Origin: an uncultured Thiothrix sp.
Lineage (GTDB): Bacteria > Pseudomonadota > Gammaproteobacteria > Poriferisulfidales > GCA-002705445
Length of the DNA: 64,000 nt
Assembly (NCBI GenBank): GCA_902559815.1
Contig: CACEJE010000003.1
Coordinates: 2,520 to 66,519 of the forward strand
Direction: 5' to 3'
In this document: piece after piece, positions 2,299-60,743 of the stretch
Numbering within the stretch: position 1 is the stretch's first letter
Layout of the letters: each line of letters begins with the position of its first letter
Program-made: the position numbers and the translations under genes
Notes under the pieces: generated by a model
Seen by the model: the letters and a program-made list of their open reading frames with translations, nothing else
Told to the model about the DNA's origin: nothing
The model's database searches: none

Positions 2299-2946
2299 AT
2301 GAAAGGTTTCTTTATAACTGGAACAGATACTGACGTAGGAAAAACTTGGTTTATGCTCAAATTTGGGGAACTATTAATCGAGAATAATATTAAATTTCAC
2401 TATTTAAAACCAGTAGAATCAGGTTGCGAGATTATCAACAACCAACCAACTCCAAATGATGCATTACAATTCTCAAAACTAGAAAATGTTTCACTTGATA
2501 AAATATGTAAGTACAAGTTTAAAGCTTATGCATCTCCACCCAAAGCTGCTCAATTAGAAAACAGGGAAATTGAACTTAAAAACATAATAAAATTCATAGA
2601 ATCAAATAAACTGACAAACTCAAAACACTATAATTTAATTGAGGGATGTGGGGGGTTTTTTTCTCCTATAGCAAAAGGTAAATTATCTTCAGACCTTGCA
2701 GTTGAGCTAAATTTACCTATTATATTAGTTGTAAAGAATATTTTAGGATGTATAAATCATACTTTAATGTCTTTAAAATCTATAGAAAACTTAAATTTGA
2801 AGACTCAATTTATTGTGCTTAATGATACTAAAGAAAACACCATCCTTGATAATTATCAAGAACTATCATCGTTTACAAATATTCCCATTATTAAATTAGG
2901 TTATAATAAAAAAATTAAACCAGTGATACTTAACTATCTTAAATAA
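2299..2946 (+). CDS. bioD: Dethiobiotin synthetase
   Basis: Contains the P-loop 'FFITGTDTDVGKT' and 'IEGCGGFFSP'. The ATG at 2299 is preceded by GGGAG, and the track start at 2287 is a TTG. Confidence 0.85.
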   Translation: MKGFFITGTDTDVGKTWFMLKFGELLIENNIKFHYLKPVESGCEIINNQPTPNDALQFSKLENVSLDKICKYKFKAYASPPKAAQLENREIELKNIIKFIESNKLTNSKHYNLIEGCGGFFSPIAKGKLSSDLAVELNLPIILVVKNILGCINHTLMSLKSIENLNLKTQFIVLNDTKENTILDNYQELSSFTNIPIIKLGYNKKIKPVILNYLK

Positions 2947-3765
2947 ATGCCAGAATTACCAGAAGTACAAACCACACTGAATGGTATAAAAAAATTTATT
3001 CTAAATAAAAGAATAAAGAAATGTGACGTTTATGTAAAAAAACTAAGATGGGAGCTACAAAAGGACCTAAGTACTAGAATAAATAATGCTAAAATTACAG
3101 ATATAAGAAGAAAAGCGAAATATATTATTCTATGTGGAGAAAATTTTTATTTGCTTTTTCATTTAGGTATGACCGGGACATTAAGGATTGCAAAGAAAAA
3201 TAATGAATTAAAAAAGCACGACCATTTTGAAATTGAAATTAATAAAAAATGCTTGTTAAGATTTAATGACCCTAGAAAATTCGGTATGATTTATTGCTCC
3301 CACAGTTGGAAATCTCTTTCTGAAAGATTCTTTTTAAATATAGGACCTGAACCTTTATCTAACAATTTTTCTTCAGAATACCTTTTTTCTATTTCACGAA
3401 ATAAAAATGTAGCTATTAAAACTTTGTTGATGAATGCAAAAAACGTTGCTGGTATTGGGAATATTTATGCATCTGAAGCACTTTTTGTAGCTAAAATTCG
3501 TCCTCAAAAAAAATCTAAAAAATTATCAAAAAATAATTGCAAAAATTTAGTTAGAGCTATAAAAAGTGTTCTTAAAAAAGCAATAGAAAAAGGTGGGTCG
3601 TCAATTAATGATTATATAAATGCAGATGGTAGAAGCGGATATTTTCAGTATGACTTTAAAGTATATGGCAGAACATCTCTGCCCTGCCATATTTGTCAAA
3701 GTAACATTCTACAAATAAAAATAAATCAGAGATCTAGTTTCTATTGCAGAAATTGTCAAAAATAA
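2947..3765 (+). CDS. mutM: Formamidopyrimidine-DNA glycosylase
   Basis: Catalytic N-terminus 'MPELPEV', an H2TH region, and a C-terminal zinc finger 'CHICQ...YCRNCQ'. It starts immediately after the bioD stop. Confidence 0.92.
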   Translation: MPELPEVQTTLNGIKKFILNKRIKKCDVYVKKLRWELQKDLSTRINNAKITDIRRKAKYIILCGENFYLLFHLGMTGTLRIAKKNNELKKHDHFEIEINKKCLLRFNDPRKFGMIYCSHSWKSLSERFFLNIGPEPLSNNFSSEYLFSISRNKNVAIKTLLMNAKNVAGIGNIYASEALFVAKIRPQKKSKKLSKNNCKNLVRAIKSVLKKAIEKGGSSINDYINADGRSGYFQYDFKVYGRTSLPCHICQSNILQIKINQRSSFYCRNCQK

Positions 3766-3769
3766 TTAA

Positions 3770-3952
3770 CTATTTCTTTTGCTGCTCATAGAACATTTGA
3801 TTTAATCTATGAGAGTTTGCATCAGCAGCAGATATAGCTTGTTTTGCTGTTTCTTCAACTAACTCTAATCTATCTAATAACGCTTGATCAACTCCACATC
3901 CCGAAAGAAGTAGTGCTGCAGATAGCCCTAGAAATGTTTTTATTTTTCTCAT
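3770..3952 (-). CDS. Small Lpp/OprI-like outer-membrane lipoprotein
   Basis: Signal peptide plus lipobox 'LLLSGC', a short helical mature part ('AADANSHRLNQ' resembles the Lpp 'AARANQRLDN' region), and a C-terminal Lys ('QQKK'). A strong AGGAGG sits 6 nt upstream of the ATG. Confidence 0.6.
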   Translation of the reverse strand: MRKIKTFLGLSAALLLSGCGVDQALLDRLELVEETAKQAISAADANSHRLNQMFYEQQKK

Positions 3953-4141
3953 TGAAGCCTCCTTTATTATTATTTAAGCTTAAATCCCATTTGGGATTTT
4001 TCACTATAGCAAATTGTTAATTGTAATCAAAGGTAAAACAACTTATTCATCTACAAAAACTTGGGTCTAGACTGTAAAAATTTTGTCTAGACACAAGATT
4101 TATTTATAAAATAGGAGGACTTAACTAACTTTAATTAAAGA

Positions 4142-4161
4142 GAAAGCCATCCTTGGCTTTC
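4142..4161 (-). terminator. Hairpin gaaagcca-(tcct)-tggctttc downstream of the 29-codon ORF (weak terminator candidate)
   Basis: Perfect 8-bp stem read directly from the sequence. On the minus strand it is followed by a T-containing stretch (tctttaatt) rather than a clean U-tract. Confidence 0.3.
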
Positions 4162-4180
4162 AATTCTTTATAAAAAACAA

Positions 4181-4270
4181 CTACTTACCTAAGCATTGCC
4201 TAATTAGACACATTGAGGCTACTGCCCAAACACCTAACATCAAAATAATTTCAAACATAATACCGTCCAT
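4181..4270 (-). CDS. Candidate 29-aa hydrophobic peptide (MDGIMFEIILMLGVWAVASMCLIRQCLGK)
   Basis: Translated by hand. It has an ATG start and TAG stop, one predicted TM helix, and a hairpin 20 nt after the stop. It lies in an otherwise empty 384-bp spacer. No recognisable Shine-Dalgarno sequence. Confidence 0.25.
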   Translation of the reverse strand: MDGIMFEIILMLGVWAVASMCLIRQCLGK

Positions 4271-55869: not shown

Positions 55870-56646
55870 TTATGCAGATTCTTTAACAGCTGCTGCCCAA
55901 ATAATCACACCAAATGCGATTTTATTAATAAAGTCAGCTAAGTTATAAACTATGTTTACTGTTGCTGGATCTGTTCCACCTGCTAGATAACCTAAGAAGT
56001 ATCCTAGTGGGTAAATTGCCCAACCAACTGTAACAATTAAACGCATAGCACCGAAAGCTGTTTGACATGCCTCGCTACCACTAGCTGCGTTTGCTTTACT
56101 TGCTTCACCAGCAAAAATTTCATAAAGAATGTATAGCCAACCGATCATCCCTATAATGAAACCTGTCATTGCAGACATCATTCCTGCTTCTCCTGCAAAT
56201 CCACCAATAAGCATTACTAAAGTACCTATTAATAGTCTCCAGAATATACCAGCTGAAACAACTGATACAGCTGCTAGAATCAAGTAGAATTCAATCATTT
56301 GTAGAGGTACAGTTAATAACCAATCAATATATCTTAAAACTGTTGGTGAATCACCTGTAGACACCCAAACTTCTCTCATGTAGAAGTAGTGAACTGCAGC
56401 AATCAATGTAACTAAACCTACAACTGTTAATGATGTTTTCCATTTGGCACTCACTCTATCTCTTTCAATAAGAAAGAATACAGTAGATGCAACCATCGCA
56501 ATGGAAATTATCCAGAAAGTAACTCCAACCGTGTCATCAGGGCTTAAACCACTGCTGTGACCACCTGCTAAAGCAATTGTTGGTAAGGAGATTACTACTA
56601 GAAGAGTTGCAAAAAGTTTTTTGCTAAAATCTAATAATTTAATCAT
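55870..56646 (-). CDS. Proteorhodopsin (light-driven proton pump), blue-absorbing type (Gln at tuning position 105)
   Basis: Near-colinear with SAR86-type PR: 'VFFLIERDRVSAKWKTSLTV', 'GDSPTVLRYIDWLLTVPLQMIEFYLIL' (Asp97, Thr101, Gln105, Glu108) and 'YNLADFINKIAFG' (Schiff-base Lys). The ATG at 56646 (MIKLL, signal-like N-terminus) is preceded by GAGGA. Confidence 0.95.
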   Translation of the reverse strand: MIKLLDFSKKLFATLLVVISLPTIALAGGHSSGLSPDDTVGVTFWIISIAMVASTVFFLIERDRVSAKWKTSLTVVGLVTLIAAVHYFYMREVWVSTGDSPTVLRYIDWLLTVPLQMIEFYLILAAVSVVSAGIFWRLLIGTLVMLIGGFAGEAGMMSAMTGFIIGMIGWLYILYEIFAGEASKANAASGSEACQTAFGAMRLIVTVGWAIYPLGYFLGYLAGGTDPATVNIVYNLADFINKIAFGVIIWAAAVKESA

Positions 56647-56946
56647 ATCGTTATTCCTCGAGTTATTATAAATATGTTTAACCCTAAACATTCTAGACAA
56701 ATATTTTAAAAAATAAACCCTTAATTATTAGCAAAACCTATACATTTTTTAAAACATAAGTCATTGAAAATAAATATAATTTTTATTTAGTTAATAAGAA
56801 TTTTTATTGATTTAAATATTATAATACACTAATATTTTTAAAAATTTGGTCATTTTTATTTATGATTTCTTTTAAATTTTTCTCAGTTAAATTGAGCACA
56901 TTGGTGTATACTCACTTTTTTTCTTAGCAAATTATAAATAAAGTTT

Positions 56947-58633: not shown

Positions 58634-59296
58634 ATGAAATGGAACTCAATAGAAACTTTTTTTTTAGACATGGATGGAACATTGCTTGATTTAGCTTACG
58701 ATAACTACTTTTGGCACGAACATGTTCCTCTTATTTTTTCAAAAAAGAATAATATTCCTTTCAATGAAGCAAAAATTTTATTAAAAAAAATGTATGCTGA
58801 AAACAAAAATTCATTAAATTGGTATTCATCTAATTATTGGAGTGAAAGAATAGAGATTAACTTATATTTAGAAATAAAAAGAACAAGAAATAAAATTAAA
58901 GTTTTTCCTGGTGTAAAAAGATTATTATCAAAGATAAAAGCCGAAGGAAGAGTTAAAATTATATTATTGACAAACTGTCCTAGAGAAATGCTTCACATTA
59001 AGTTAGATCAAACTAAATTATGGAGATATTTTGATAAGATAATATCTTCAGAGGATTATGGATATCCAAAAGAATCAAAAAAATTTTGGAAAATATTAGA
59101 AAATAAATTAAAGTATAATAAAAATAAAACAGCTTTTATAGACGATAATGTTGACGTGCTAAAGTATGCCGAATCAAGCGGCATAAAATATTTATTTTCA
59201 GTCAGTATACCTGATTCAAAGAAACAAAAAAAAATTATTAAAGATTATGAGTCCCTAGAAAATATCGGGTTTTTTGAAAATAAGTTTATTGATTAG
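58634..59296 (+). CDS. HAD-superfamily hydrolase (nucleotidase-like)
   Basis: HAD motif I 'FFLDMDGTLLDL', motif II 'LLTN', and motif IV 'FIDDN'. Confidence 0.8.
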   Translation: MKWNSIETFFLDMDGTLLDLAYDNYFWHEHVPLIFSKKNNIPFNEAKILLKKMYAENKNSLNWYSSNYWSERIEINLYLEIKRTRNKIKVFPGVKRLLSKIKAEGRVKIILLTNCPREMLHIKLDQTKLWRYFDKIISSEDYGYPKESKKFWKILENKLKYNKNKTAFIDDNVDVLKYAESSGIKYLFSVSIPDSKKQKKIIKDYESLENIGFFENKFID

Positions 59297-59798
59297 CTTT
59301 TGTACAATTATTTGCTAGTCTTAATAAATATGTTCGAAGTTTTTTCCAGTCATTTTCTGTAACTATAAAACCAACACATTTTTTTGAACCACACTTACAA
59401 ACATGGTCCCGAAAATCCTCATTATCAAAAGCGAAACCATAGTCGTAAGTTAACTCAGCTCCTTTTCTTATATCTTTGAAAGATCTAATCCAAATTTTAC
59501 CATCAATAATATCAGTGTCACAATTTGGATTACAAGAGTGATTCATTAACCTGGCTTTATTATATGATACATTCCCATTGATATCGTACTTGTCGTCAAG
59601 AGTGAATATATAAACTTGGCCTTCTTCTCTGTTTTTTTGAGCTTTTTTTAGCTGCACTTCAGCGATTTTATCTGACTGCGCTTTAGTAATTTTCTCTCCA
59701 ACATATTCAACAATATTTGTACCTGCTTTGATATAACAATTTGCAAATAAGCCCTTCCCATGTAACTTAGAATTTTTAATTGTGTAAAGTTTTTTCAT
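59286..59798 (-). CDS. SET-domain protein-lysine N-methyltransferase
   Basis: 'GKGLFA', 'ARLMNHSCNPNC', 'GAELTYDYGF', and the post-SET cysteines 'CKCGSKKC'. The ATG at 59798 is 5 nt after the upstream stop, and alternative Mets lie at 59822 and 59834. Confidence 0.8.
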   Translation of the reverse strand: MKKLYTIKNSKLHGKGLFANCYIKAGTNIVEYVGEKITKAQSDKIAEVQLKKAQKNREEGQVYIFTLDDKYDINGNVSYNKARLMNHSCNPNCDTDIIDGKIWIRSFKDIRKGAELTYDYGFAFDNEDFRDHVCKCGSKKCVGFIVTENDWKKLRTYLLRLANNCTKANQ

Positions 59799-59803
59799 AT
59801 TTT

Positions 59804-60196
59804 TTATACTGATGCATTCCATGCGAATGTACAATCAAGCTCCGATCGAACTTTTGATAGACCATTCACTCCTTCGTTAATAATTACTTCTAATGGGGTT
59901 AAGTTTTCAAATCTTCTATGCTTTGTCTTCAACCATTTTTCAGCCATGTTAATATTTCTAGGAAAAGTTGTTCTGAGTGCATCTGAAATTCCCATAATAT
60001 GGCTAAGTCTAAGTGTTAAAGAGCTGTTATATGGAAAAGCTTTTAAAGTTCTATATTTATCTAACTCTCGTTTACGGGTTTGCTTTGAAAGCCCTAGTAT
60101 TTGAACAGTCTGTTCTGTTGTCAAATTCCAAGAGTCTAAAACCTTCATAACTGTTTTAGTAATGTACATAAACTCTTCTTCTGTATAATCGTTCAT
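59804..60196 (-). CDS. Xre/ParS/MbcA-type antitoxin-like protein (Xre-like HTH plus DUF2384 toxin-binding domain)
   Basis: The N-terminal 'VLDSWNLTTEQTVQILGLSKQTRKR' fits the Xre-like antitoxin HTH. The C-terminal 'AEKWLKTKHRRFENLTPLEVIINEGVNGLSKVRSELD' fits the DUF2384 consensus pattern (A..WL....p.l.g.tPlel...eG...V...L). Assigned from memory of the family, not by HMM. Confidence 0.6.
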   Translation of the reverse strand: MNDYTEEEFMYITKTVMKVLDSWNLTTEQTVQILGLSKQTRKRELDKYRTLKAFPYNSSLTLRLSHIMGISDALRTTFPRNINMAEKWLKTKHRRFENLTPLEVIINEGVNGLSKVRSELDCTFAWNASV

Positions 60197-60311
60197 AATG
60201 TTCTTTTGAAATTTATGTTACTTTATATGGTAATAATAAAATTATCAATATTATAATATAATATTTATTTGGCAAAATTTAACAATTTAGATAATTATAT
60301 TAAGAGGTTAT

Positions 60312-60743
60312 ATGTTTAAAAAGATTAAAGGCTTATTTAAAAAAAAATCAGATGAATTAGATAACTTAATTGATGATCAATTAGCATCAGCTATTTTATT
60401 AATTGAAGTTTCTTATTCTGATTTTAAAATTGACAAAATAGAAGTTAATACGATTATAAATTTTTTTGAAAAAGAATTTTCATTGTCAAACAATAAAGCA
60501 AGATGGCTAAGTAATAAAGCATTAAACCTTCACAAAGATGAAAATTGTTTAAGAAAATATATAAAATTCATAAATGAAAATTATAATAAAGAAAAAAAAA
60601 TAAAACTTATAAATATGGCTTGGAAAGTTGCAAAAGCTGATAATGTTATTGATAAATACGAAGAACATAGGATTAGAAAACTATCTGAACTACTTTATAT
60701 AAATCATACAGAATTTATAAAAGCCAAAATTAATTCTAGTTAA
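60312..60743 (+). CDS. TerB-family (tellurite-resistance-like / DjlA N-domain-like) protein
   Basis: Two-lobed pattern, 'AILLIEVSYSDFKIDKIEVNTI' and 'INMAWKVAKADNVIDKYEEHRIRKLSELL', typical of TerB-fold proteins. Confidence 0.6.
   Translation: MFKKIKGLFKKKSDELDNLIDDQLASAILLIEVSYSDFKIDKIEVNTIINFFEKEFSLSNNKARWLSNKALNLHKDENCLRKYIKFINENYNKEKKIKLINMAWKVAKADNVIDKYEEHRIRKLSELLYINHTEFIKAKINSS

Follow-up and report, generated by a model that had tools for sequence, protein, structure and literature searches.

A Probable Clade-Specific Operon of an Antitoxin-Fold Gene and a SET-Domain Gene in an Uncultured Thiothrix sp.

Introduction

When a gene pair has the layout of a toxin-antitoxin (TA) system and carries a SET-domain gene where the toxin gene is expected, is it a TA module? 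This question is raised by a 64,000-nucleotide stretch of contig CACEJE010000003.1 (positions 2,520 to 66,519; assembly GCA_902559815.1) from an uncultured Thiothrix sp., which is called the window here. On its reverse strand, a gene for an antitoxin-like protein (ANTI) is followed almost immediately by a gene for a small SET-domain protein (SET):

59804-60196, reverse strand: ANTI, a 130-aa protein with the Xre helix-turn-helix (HTH)/DUF2384 antitoxin fold (PF09722 match, AlphaFold2 model, Foldseek)
59799-59803, reverse strand: spacer AAAAT of 5 nt between the TAA of ANTI and the ATG of SET; the junction reads TAA-aaaat-ATG (from the sequence)
59286-59798, reverse strand: SET, a 170-aa predicted protein-lysine methyltransferase with a minimal SET plus post-SET design of the MLL/SET1-like type (PF00856, MLL1 alignment)

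The original prediction, made from the letters of the window, saw here a TA module with SET in the toxin slot. In the present study, we arrive at a different reading, which we regard as probable: ANTI-SET is a lineage-specific chromosomal two-gene operon, in which a vertically inherited regulator without a RES partner was joined by an acquired SET gene, and not a TA module.

Results and Discussion

A scan of 185,579 species-representative genomes gave 330 ANTI relatives, and the neighbourhood counts reported here rest on the best 80 of these 330. SET lies directly 3' of ANTI, in identical synteny, in all 14 loci in which ANTI is at least 61% identical to that of the window, and it was found within 3 kb of ANTI in none of the 66 loci at 37-50% identity (tblastn and a SET hidden Markov model (HMM) on six-frame translations). 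The closest genomes are metagenome-assembled genomes (MAGs) and single-amplified genomes that carry the label "Thiothrix sp." or "Gammaproteobacteria bacterium" and whose contigs reach 1.1 Mb. Both genes are present in 14 of 14 genomes of this clade and also in additional metagenomic contigs. A word-indexed protein search with ANTI returned close relatives only (60-100% identity), and the inspected contigs of these relatives have the uniform neighbourhood MetX-MetW-TerB< ANTI> SET> HAD< MFS-DUF2237-rhodopsin. The ANTI family itself reaches well past the clade of the window, because the family profile, in an exhaustive HMMER search, matches 742 representative clusters at E<=1e-3, of which 222 pass E<=1e-10. 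The original prediction had proposed to ask whether the adjacency recurs; it does so in 14 species-level genomes of the clade, and it is absent from the 66 more distant loci. This distribution suggests a single evolutionary origin of the ANTI-SET adjacency at one fixed syntenic position, YggT-MetX-MetW-TerB< ANTI> SET> HAD< MFS. Recurrence as a unit in varied contexts and lineages, which is a general feature of TA systems, was not seen, the pair being confined to one clade and one synteny. In addition, no ANTI-SET fusion was found among ten longer ANTI relatives that were checked (184-306 aa), all of which are tandem or extended DUF2384 proteins.

For the 80 loci, all open reading frames (ORFs) were clustered and gene maps were drawn. 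Fifteen of the distant loci share the block of the window, in the form ProC-YggT-(MetX-MetW)-HU-TerB<-HspQ<-U100>-ANTI>-CxxCxxCC>-HAD<, and the version of the SET-bearing clade is YggT-MetX-MetW-TerB<-ANTI>-SET>-HAD<. The gene that we call U100 encodes a protein of about 95-105 aa. Of the 66 distant loci, 42 have it directly 5' of ANTI (for example L026:2627-2980, L044:2681-2980, L039:1006-1290, and 39 more loci); their contexts are of at least three unrelated kinds, and the stop and start codons often overlap. Neither the window nor any of the 14 SET-bearing loci has U100. The protein carries the motif KE(Q/K)R-L-MRK-L...TP...DI(K/R)-CF-LI-RE-E(L/I) and belongs to no family in Pfam or NCBIfam. 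Its AlphaFold2 model is a helical hairpin with a disordered tail (predicted local distance difference test score (pLDDT) 72), for which Foldseek found no informative neighbour (best E=2.4). In some NCBI records U100 is named 'segregation and condensation protein A', which we take as a putative label. We consider that U100 is probably the real, conserved partner of the RES-less DUF2384 subfamily.

On the downstream side of ANTI, the picture is one of variety. A Pfam scan of 40 ORFs located 3' of ANTI relatives gave a CxxCxxCC protein in 15 cases, a class-III aminotransferase in 6, PheA in 3, GGDEF-EAL in 2 and other housekeeping genes, and a RES domain in none. Two RES seeds used in phmmer likewise detected no RES gene in the window or the 80 loci, and the SET neighbour itself has no RES match in Pfam. 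The original prediction was therefore correct in describing an antitoxin-first layout from which the RES toxin is missing. Since unrelated housekeeping genes follow ANTI in other contexts, ANTI would need no particular downstream partner. There is good support for ANTI being older than SET, as several contexts contain U100-ANTI and no SET. Furthermore, the hallmark of the subfamily, a C-terminal R-x-E-L-D-C-T-F/Y-A-W motif, is accompanied by positions that are conserved throughout the subfamily (W23, R43, P55, I70, L74, P79, W88, P101, G112, D121, C122 and W126), and these are the same with or without SET, so that the main molecular function of ANTI would predate SET and be independent of it. 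Overall, the ANTI subfamily is chromosomal and lacks RES, and its inheritance appears to be vertical. One locus, L065 from an Ectothiorhodospiraceae MAG, has two ANTI-family paralogues (2944-3402 and 3814-4191), which share one strand and are separated by about 400 bp.

The position between ANTI and HAD deserves separate consideration. A CxxCxxCC (PF03692) protein of about 140 aa is encoded there in 15 loci (L026:3356-3835, L028:3415-3831, L040:3339-3797, and 12 more), and SET is encoded there in 14. This one-for-one swap, with operon position and flanks unchanged, could reflect a non-orthologous displacement, in which ANTI works with whichever gene precedes HAD and SET replaced CxxCxxCC as a functional analogue, for example with both proteins modifying the same target protein in a three-part module. 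It agrees with this idea that both are small, Cys-rich, metal-binding proteins, and that the PF03692 motif has been termed similar to the Cys motif of FliB, a [4Fe-4S] flagellin lysine methylase (PMC8598068). However, that paper goes no further than 'similar', and the CxxCxxCC proteins have no match in NCBIfam, FliB models included, and only marginal scores in Pfam (best 2.8e-7); on these grounds we rate a FliB-like lysine methylase as improbable. The gap between ANTI and CxxCxxCC, 33-86 nt in most loci, is also wider than the ANTI-SET junction, and the unrelated housekeeping genes that follow ANTI elsewhere speak against a functional replacement. We judge such a displacement to be quite improbable.

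The evidence from the SET side points in the same direction as that from the ANTI side. We detected 722 SET homologues, many of them stand-alone bacterial proteins of about 160 aa at 50-60% identity. Outside the clade, no ANTI-like or DUF2384-type neighbour was found, by annotation and HMM, at any of 10 chromosomal and 3 plasmid loci, and these homologues without an ANTI-like partner are found at 53-61% identity. The three plasmid genes (Burkholderiaceae, Variovorax megaplasmids) were considered as DUF2384 pairs and rejected, as their neighbours are KfrA-like, DUF746 and MarR genes; on plasmids, SET occurs without ANTI, and ANTI relatives occur with RES. As far as the compared loci tell, SET does not need ANTI as a partner. 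On chromosomes, the homologues of L007, L009, L091/L092, L100 and L101 lie among O-antigen, heptose and rhodanese genes, and the remaining two loci, L090 and L099, have other contexts.

Some further observations were made at these SET loci. The marine loci L007 (a record labelled Pelagibacteraceae), L009, L091/L092, L100 and L101 are surrounded by genes for O-antigen, heptose and sugar nucleotides (Wzy_C, epimerases, SIS/PNK3P), and a UPF0176/rhodanese gene, which is conserved, and an acyltransferase gene adjoin SET in them. In L006:2537-3528 and L098:2107-3037, a histidine-kinase gene is followed by a stand-alone response-regulator gene and then by a SET homologue (52-53% identical); this arrangement, seen in two unrelated lineages, is possibly a different regulatory context that recurs.

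Within the clade, the ratio of nonsynonymous to synonymous changes (dN/dS, Nei-Gojobori) is 0.04-0.19 for ANTI and 0.03-0.13 for SET, which is strong purifying selection, and synonymous sites are near saturation for most pairs. Because the ratio is low at nearly saturated synonymous sites, the pair is old and has been maintained. Such selection is compatible with a housekeeping role and does not by itself exclude a TA pair. No relatives of ANTI or SET were found on viral contigs, and neither protein matched the PADLOC models of anti-phage defence.

With these results, the strong version of the original prediction can be weighed, namely that ANTI-SET is a true addictive type II TA system in which SET is the toxin and arrests growth. 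The general layout of type II systems, a tight junction between two small genes that run in one direction, is present here; the antitoxin fold is present as well, and no RES toxin is around to account for the antitoxin. However, the pair holds a fixed core-genome position, with no patchy or mobile distribution, the ANTI subfamily is older than SET and has no toxin-like partner, and members of the SET family are common as stand-alone genes without an immunity gene. Strong purifying selection acts on both genes in a reduced genome, the GC content of the window being 28.8%. An addictive system of this kind is very improbable. The placing of SET in a toxin slot is likewise not upheld in general: the adjacency has a single apparent origin and one synteny and is lacking in the 66 distant relatives, the subfamily has no RES partner, its downstream neighbours vary and its recurrent partner is the upstream U100, the 13 SET homologues have no DUF2384-type neighbour, and there is no sign of mobility.

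ANTI is nevertheless antitoxin-like at the level of fold and homology. PF09722 (Xre_MbcA_ParS_C) matches residues 77-121 with 25.8 bits (cut-off 24.5, E=1.1e-5, Pfam); the margin is small, but it is backed by 35% identity to an annotated antitoxin and by the fold match. PF20432, the Xre-like HTH, reaches 19.3 bits and stays under its cut-off of 25.8, so that one of the two Pfam profiles proposed for the 130-aa protein scored above its cut-off; the AlphaFold2 alignment nonetheless spans the N-terminal helices. The model, built with 18 family members as input, has a mean pLDDT of 88.6 and a predicted template-modelling (TM) score of 0.83, and its best and sole significant PDB neighbours in Foldseek are antitoxins of RES systems. 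The closest is NatR (8qnl_B; TM-score 0.74/0.85, root-mean-square deviation 1.9 Å), and the others are MbcA (6fkg_C), Pseudomonas putida Xre (6gw6_B/9r35) and VPA0769 (8gug_C); with NatR, MbcA and Xre the alignment covers 113-130 columns. At the level of fold, these matches agree with the two-part ParS/MbcA-type architecture that had been proposed from the letters.

In sequence, the kinship is more remote. The NCBIfam antitoxin models stay under their curated cut-offs (NF049845, 33.2 vs 90 bits; TIGR02293, 13.8 vs 57), and the ANTI family profile gave just chance-level matches to Abraxas among the PDB sequences. Because this profile search was empty, the relation of ANTI to the solved antitoxins is remote in sequence and visible at the fold level. 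Against plasmids, tblastn found proteins annotated as MbcA, ParS or Xre antitoxins that are 31-35% identical to ANTI, the best being the antitoxin of Thioalkalivibrio plasmid pTK9001 (35% identity, E=2e-15), next to which lies a RES gene. In both of the two plasmid loci inspected, the RES gene is directly 3' of the antitoxin gene with an overlap of 1-4 nt, and they served as a positive control for the canonical layout. Most likely, ANTI descends from RES-type (MbcA/ParS/NatR) antitoxins and has kept their fold.

The downstream gene was described in the original prediction as a complete SET domain with a post-SET Cys cluster, and the proposed PF00856 search supports this. The profile is covered over its whole length (1-105) with 83.4 bits (cut-off 22.4, E=1.7e-23, Pfam), and SET aligns end to end with the SET/post-SET domain of human MLL1 (E=1e-21). 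The motifs HGKGLFA, NHSCNPNC, ELTYDY and CKCGSKKC match the corresponding MLL1 residues (GxG, NHSC and the Tyr of ELxYDY for catalysis and SAM binding, and the CxCx4C Zn cluster). Among the small bacterial SET proteins, SET is unexceptional, and it is a predicted lysine methyltransferase. All ORF positions and motifs quoted earlier for the two genes are present in the translations.

Across the 14 orthologous loci, the ANTI-SET junction ranges from -4 to +14 nt. SET starts at the ATG at 59798, and the equivalent ATG just past the ANTI stop is used in 14 of 14 orthologues. A longer SET ORF from the TTG at 59834 was considered and is unlikely for the same reason; of the spacing proposed originally, the 5 nt stand and the overlap through an earlier start is unlikely. 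The tight spacer implies probable co-transcription, and possibly coupled translation.

Upstream of ANTI, the divergent intergenic region towards the TerB gene (115 bp) contains one candidate promoter element:

60220-60248, reverse strand: sigma-70-like promoter-like site TTGATA-17-TAAAGT 5' of ANTI (consensus scan)

This block and the next ~25 nt are the sole conserved parts of the intergenic region among the 14 orthologous loci. AT-rich inverted repeats are also present 5' of ANTI in the window and are not kept among the orthologues; they are unremarkable, because such repeats are expected at about 29% GC.

From these elements, the history and working of the operon may be pictured as follows. 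ANTI would be a core gene of Thiotrichales-like and related marine Gammaproteobacteria, where it ancestrally stood second in a tight pair after U100. In the ancestor of the clade of the window, which is AT-rich and proteorhodopsin-bearing, U100 and a neighbouring hspQ-like gene would have been lost, and a small, widespread bacterial SET gene would have arrived between ANTI and HAD, in the slot that CxxCxxCC holds in sister lineages; the direction of this replacement, from CxxCxxCC to SET, is what we infer. ANTI, with its Xre-type HTH, is probably a transcriptional regulator and may bind DNA at its own promoter. Its autoregulation is considered possible because of the known behaviour of the family, for example P. 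putida Xre bound to promoter DNA (9r35). SET would be co-transcribed with ANTI, because the junction is 5 nt and there is a single conserved promoter-like site, and its expression would in this way be tied to ANTI. SET, in turn, would methylate lysines of an endogenous protein. The suggestion that a DUF2384 protein acts as a dedicated regulator of a SET enzyme is plausible at this level of shared transcription.

Several points weigh against a simple operon of regulator and acquired enzyme. The junction stays within -4 to +14 nt despite saturating divergence, which is tighter than mere adjacency demands. The loss of U100 coincides with the gain of SET, and this could be a change of protein partner as opposed to two unrelated events; because strong purifying selection persists, ANTI retains some function without U100. 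The score for the HTH family PF20432 is under the Pfam threshold, which makes DNA binding by ANTI less certain, and no palindromic operator conserved across the 14 loci was seen in the TerB/ANTI intergenic region. In addition, the sampling covers the best 80 of the 330 genome matches and 13 outgroup SET loci.

These points lend some weight to an exapted antitoxin-enzyme pair, in which the loss of U100 was followed by recruitment of the C-terminal DUF2384 domain as a SET-binding element that inhibits or gates the enzyme. This would be a weaker, non-addictive form of the original idea, comparable to a domesticated TA system with a lysine methyltransferase as effector. It can draw on the layout of canonical Xre-RES operons (antitoxin first, partner a few nt away), the full NatR/MbcA fold of ANTI, the presence of both genes in 14 of 14 clade genomes and extra metagenomic contigs, the coincidence of U100 loss with SET gain, and the purifying selection that retains ANTI in a streamlined genome. 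However, with a single origin and a single synteny, the co-occurrence weighs no more than that of any neighbouring pair in the block. The conserved positions of ANTI are common to its SET-less relatives, the SET homologues at 53-61% identity are partnerless in all ten chromosomal and all three plasmid contexts, and neither mobility nor a PADLOC match was found. Moreover, the known DUF2384 domains plug into the NAD+ pocket of RES, as in the MbcTA and ParST structures, and the RES fold is unrelated to SET. Taken together, we regard an exapted pair as rather unlikely. The related proposal that ANTI was re-purposed from the RES-antitoxin lineage as a dedicated protein-level inhibitor or gatekeeper of SET, with U100 swapped for SET, is also doubtful, and we would not expect it to hold. 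The clade-specific operon of regulator and acquired SET gene is the reading that we retain.

The genes on both sides of the pair served as synteny anchors:

60312-60743, forward strand: TerB-domain gene, outside the pair and divergent from ANTI (PF05099, 85.9 bits)
58634-59296, forward strand: HAD-hydrolase gene, convergent with SET (PF00702, PF13419)

The TerB gene diverges from ANTI on its upstream side in 14 close and 14 distant loci. The HAD gene converges with the pair from the downstream side in 13 close and 15 distant loci, and in the window its 3' end overlaps that of SET by 11 nt. Coordinates and Pfam thus agree with the context given in the original prediction, HAD convergent and TerB divergent. 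An Rfam scan of the window found one tRNA only. On the forward strand at 60076-60094, inside the ANTI coding region and opposite to it, a terminator-like hairpin GGGTTTGCTTTGAAAGCCC is followed by a T-rich stretch; the match probably arose by chance. A 276-aa ORF with proteorhodopsin sequence features lies on the reverse strand (55870-56700), some 2.6 kb away from ANTI-SET, and its orthologue in related contigs bears PF01036 (Bac_rhodopsin). This ORF fits a photoheterotrophic bacterium of the surface ocean.

Among the known systems, the Xre-RES TA systems are the nearest for comparison (MbcTA of Mycobacterium tuberculosis, ParST of Sphingobium, Xre-RES of P. putida, NatRT of P. aeruginosa, and VPA0769/0770). 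ANTI shares their two-part fold, and the gene order is the same, an antitoxin-like gene leading and its partner following a few nt 3'. The locus differs in the defining feature of these systems, as no RES gene is found in the window or in 80 related loci. ANTI also scores 33 against the 90 bits of NF049845, and the downstream partner is SET in one clade only and variable elsewhere. The recurrent partner of the subfamily is the upstream helical U100 of about 100 aa. ANTI-SET is chromosomal and conserved, as is natRT, which is assigned to the core genome of P. aeruginosa by its authors (PMC11535050). ANTI can also be compared with orphan or domesticated transcription factors derived from antitoxins, since it likewise appears to be a selected core-genome HTH protein without a recognisable toxin; it differs from them in that its subfamily usually has a small upstream partner of its own, U100.

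SET, for its part, has the same minimal design of ~160-170 aa as the small stand-alone SET proteins (chlamydial SET/NUE, Methanosarcina Go1-SET, Burkholderia BtSET and chlorella-virus vSET), with which it shares the NHSC and ELxYDY motifs and the post-SET Zn cluster. Most of the characterised bacterial SET proteins either are effectors that pathogens secrete or act by methylating nucleoid proteins (PMC10117894 and general knowledge), whereas the SET of the window belongs to a free-living planktonic bacterium with a small genome. Its subgroup is the only sampled one that stands behind an Xre/DUF2384 gene.

The searchable literature on DUF2384 deals with the pairing with RES and with a few nuclease fusions, and no paper in it links DUF2384 with a SET domain. 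The original prediction knew of no description of such a partner, and the DUF2384-SET combination indeed has no mention there. The new findings are modest. They are a core-genome branch of the antitoxin fold that lacks RES and is associated with U100, and a probable operon of a regulator and SET that is specific to one clade.

Conclusion

In the present study, a gene order resembling that of a TA system was traced through its orthologous loci, and the case shows that analogies of gene order to TA systems need to be checked against such loci. A methylating TA system, if true, would be a new toxin chemistry, and the present evidence argues against it. If the protein-level gatekeeper were true, antitoxin-like control would be seen for the first time on a bacterial protein-lysine methyltransferase, and this would give a handle on the roles of SET enzymes in free-living bacteria. 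For the family, the DUF2384/Xre fold has a sizeable RES-less subfamily of core genes (222 representative clusters at E<=1e-10), for which the label "antitoxin" is likely misleading. For the organism, an abundant clade of small-genome marine Gammaproteobacteria keeps what is probably a tight regulator-SET operon, and this may serve as a rare genomic clue to the control of a SET enzyme in a free-living bacterium.

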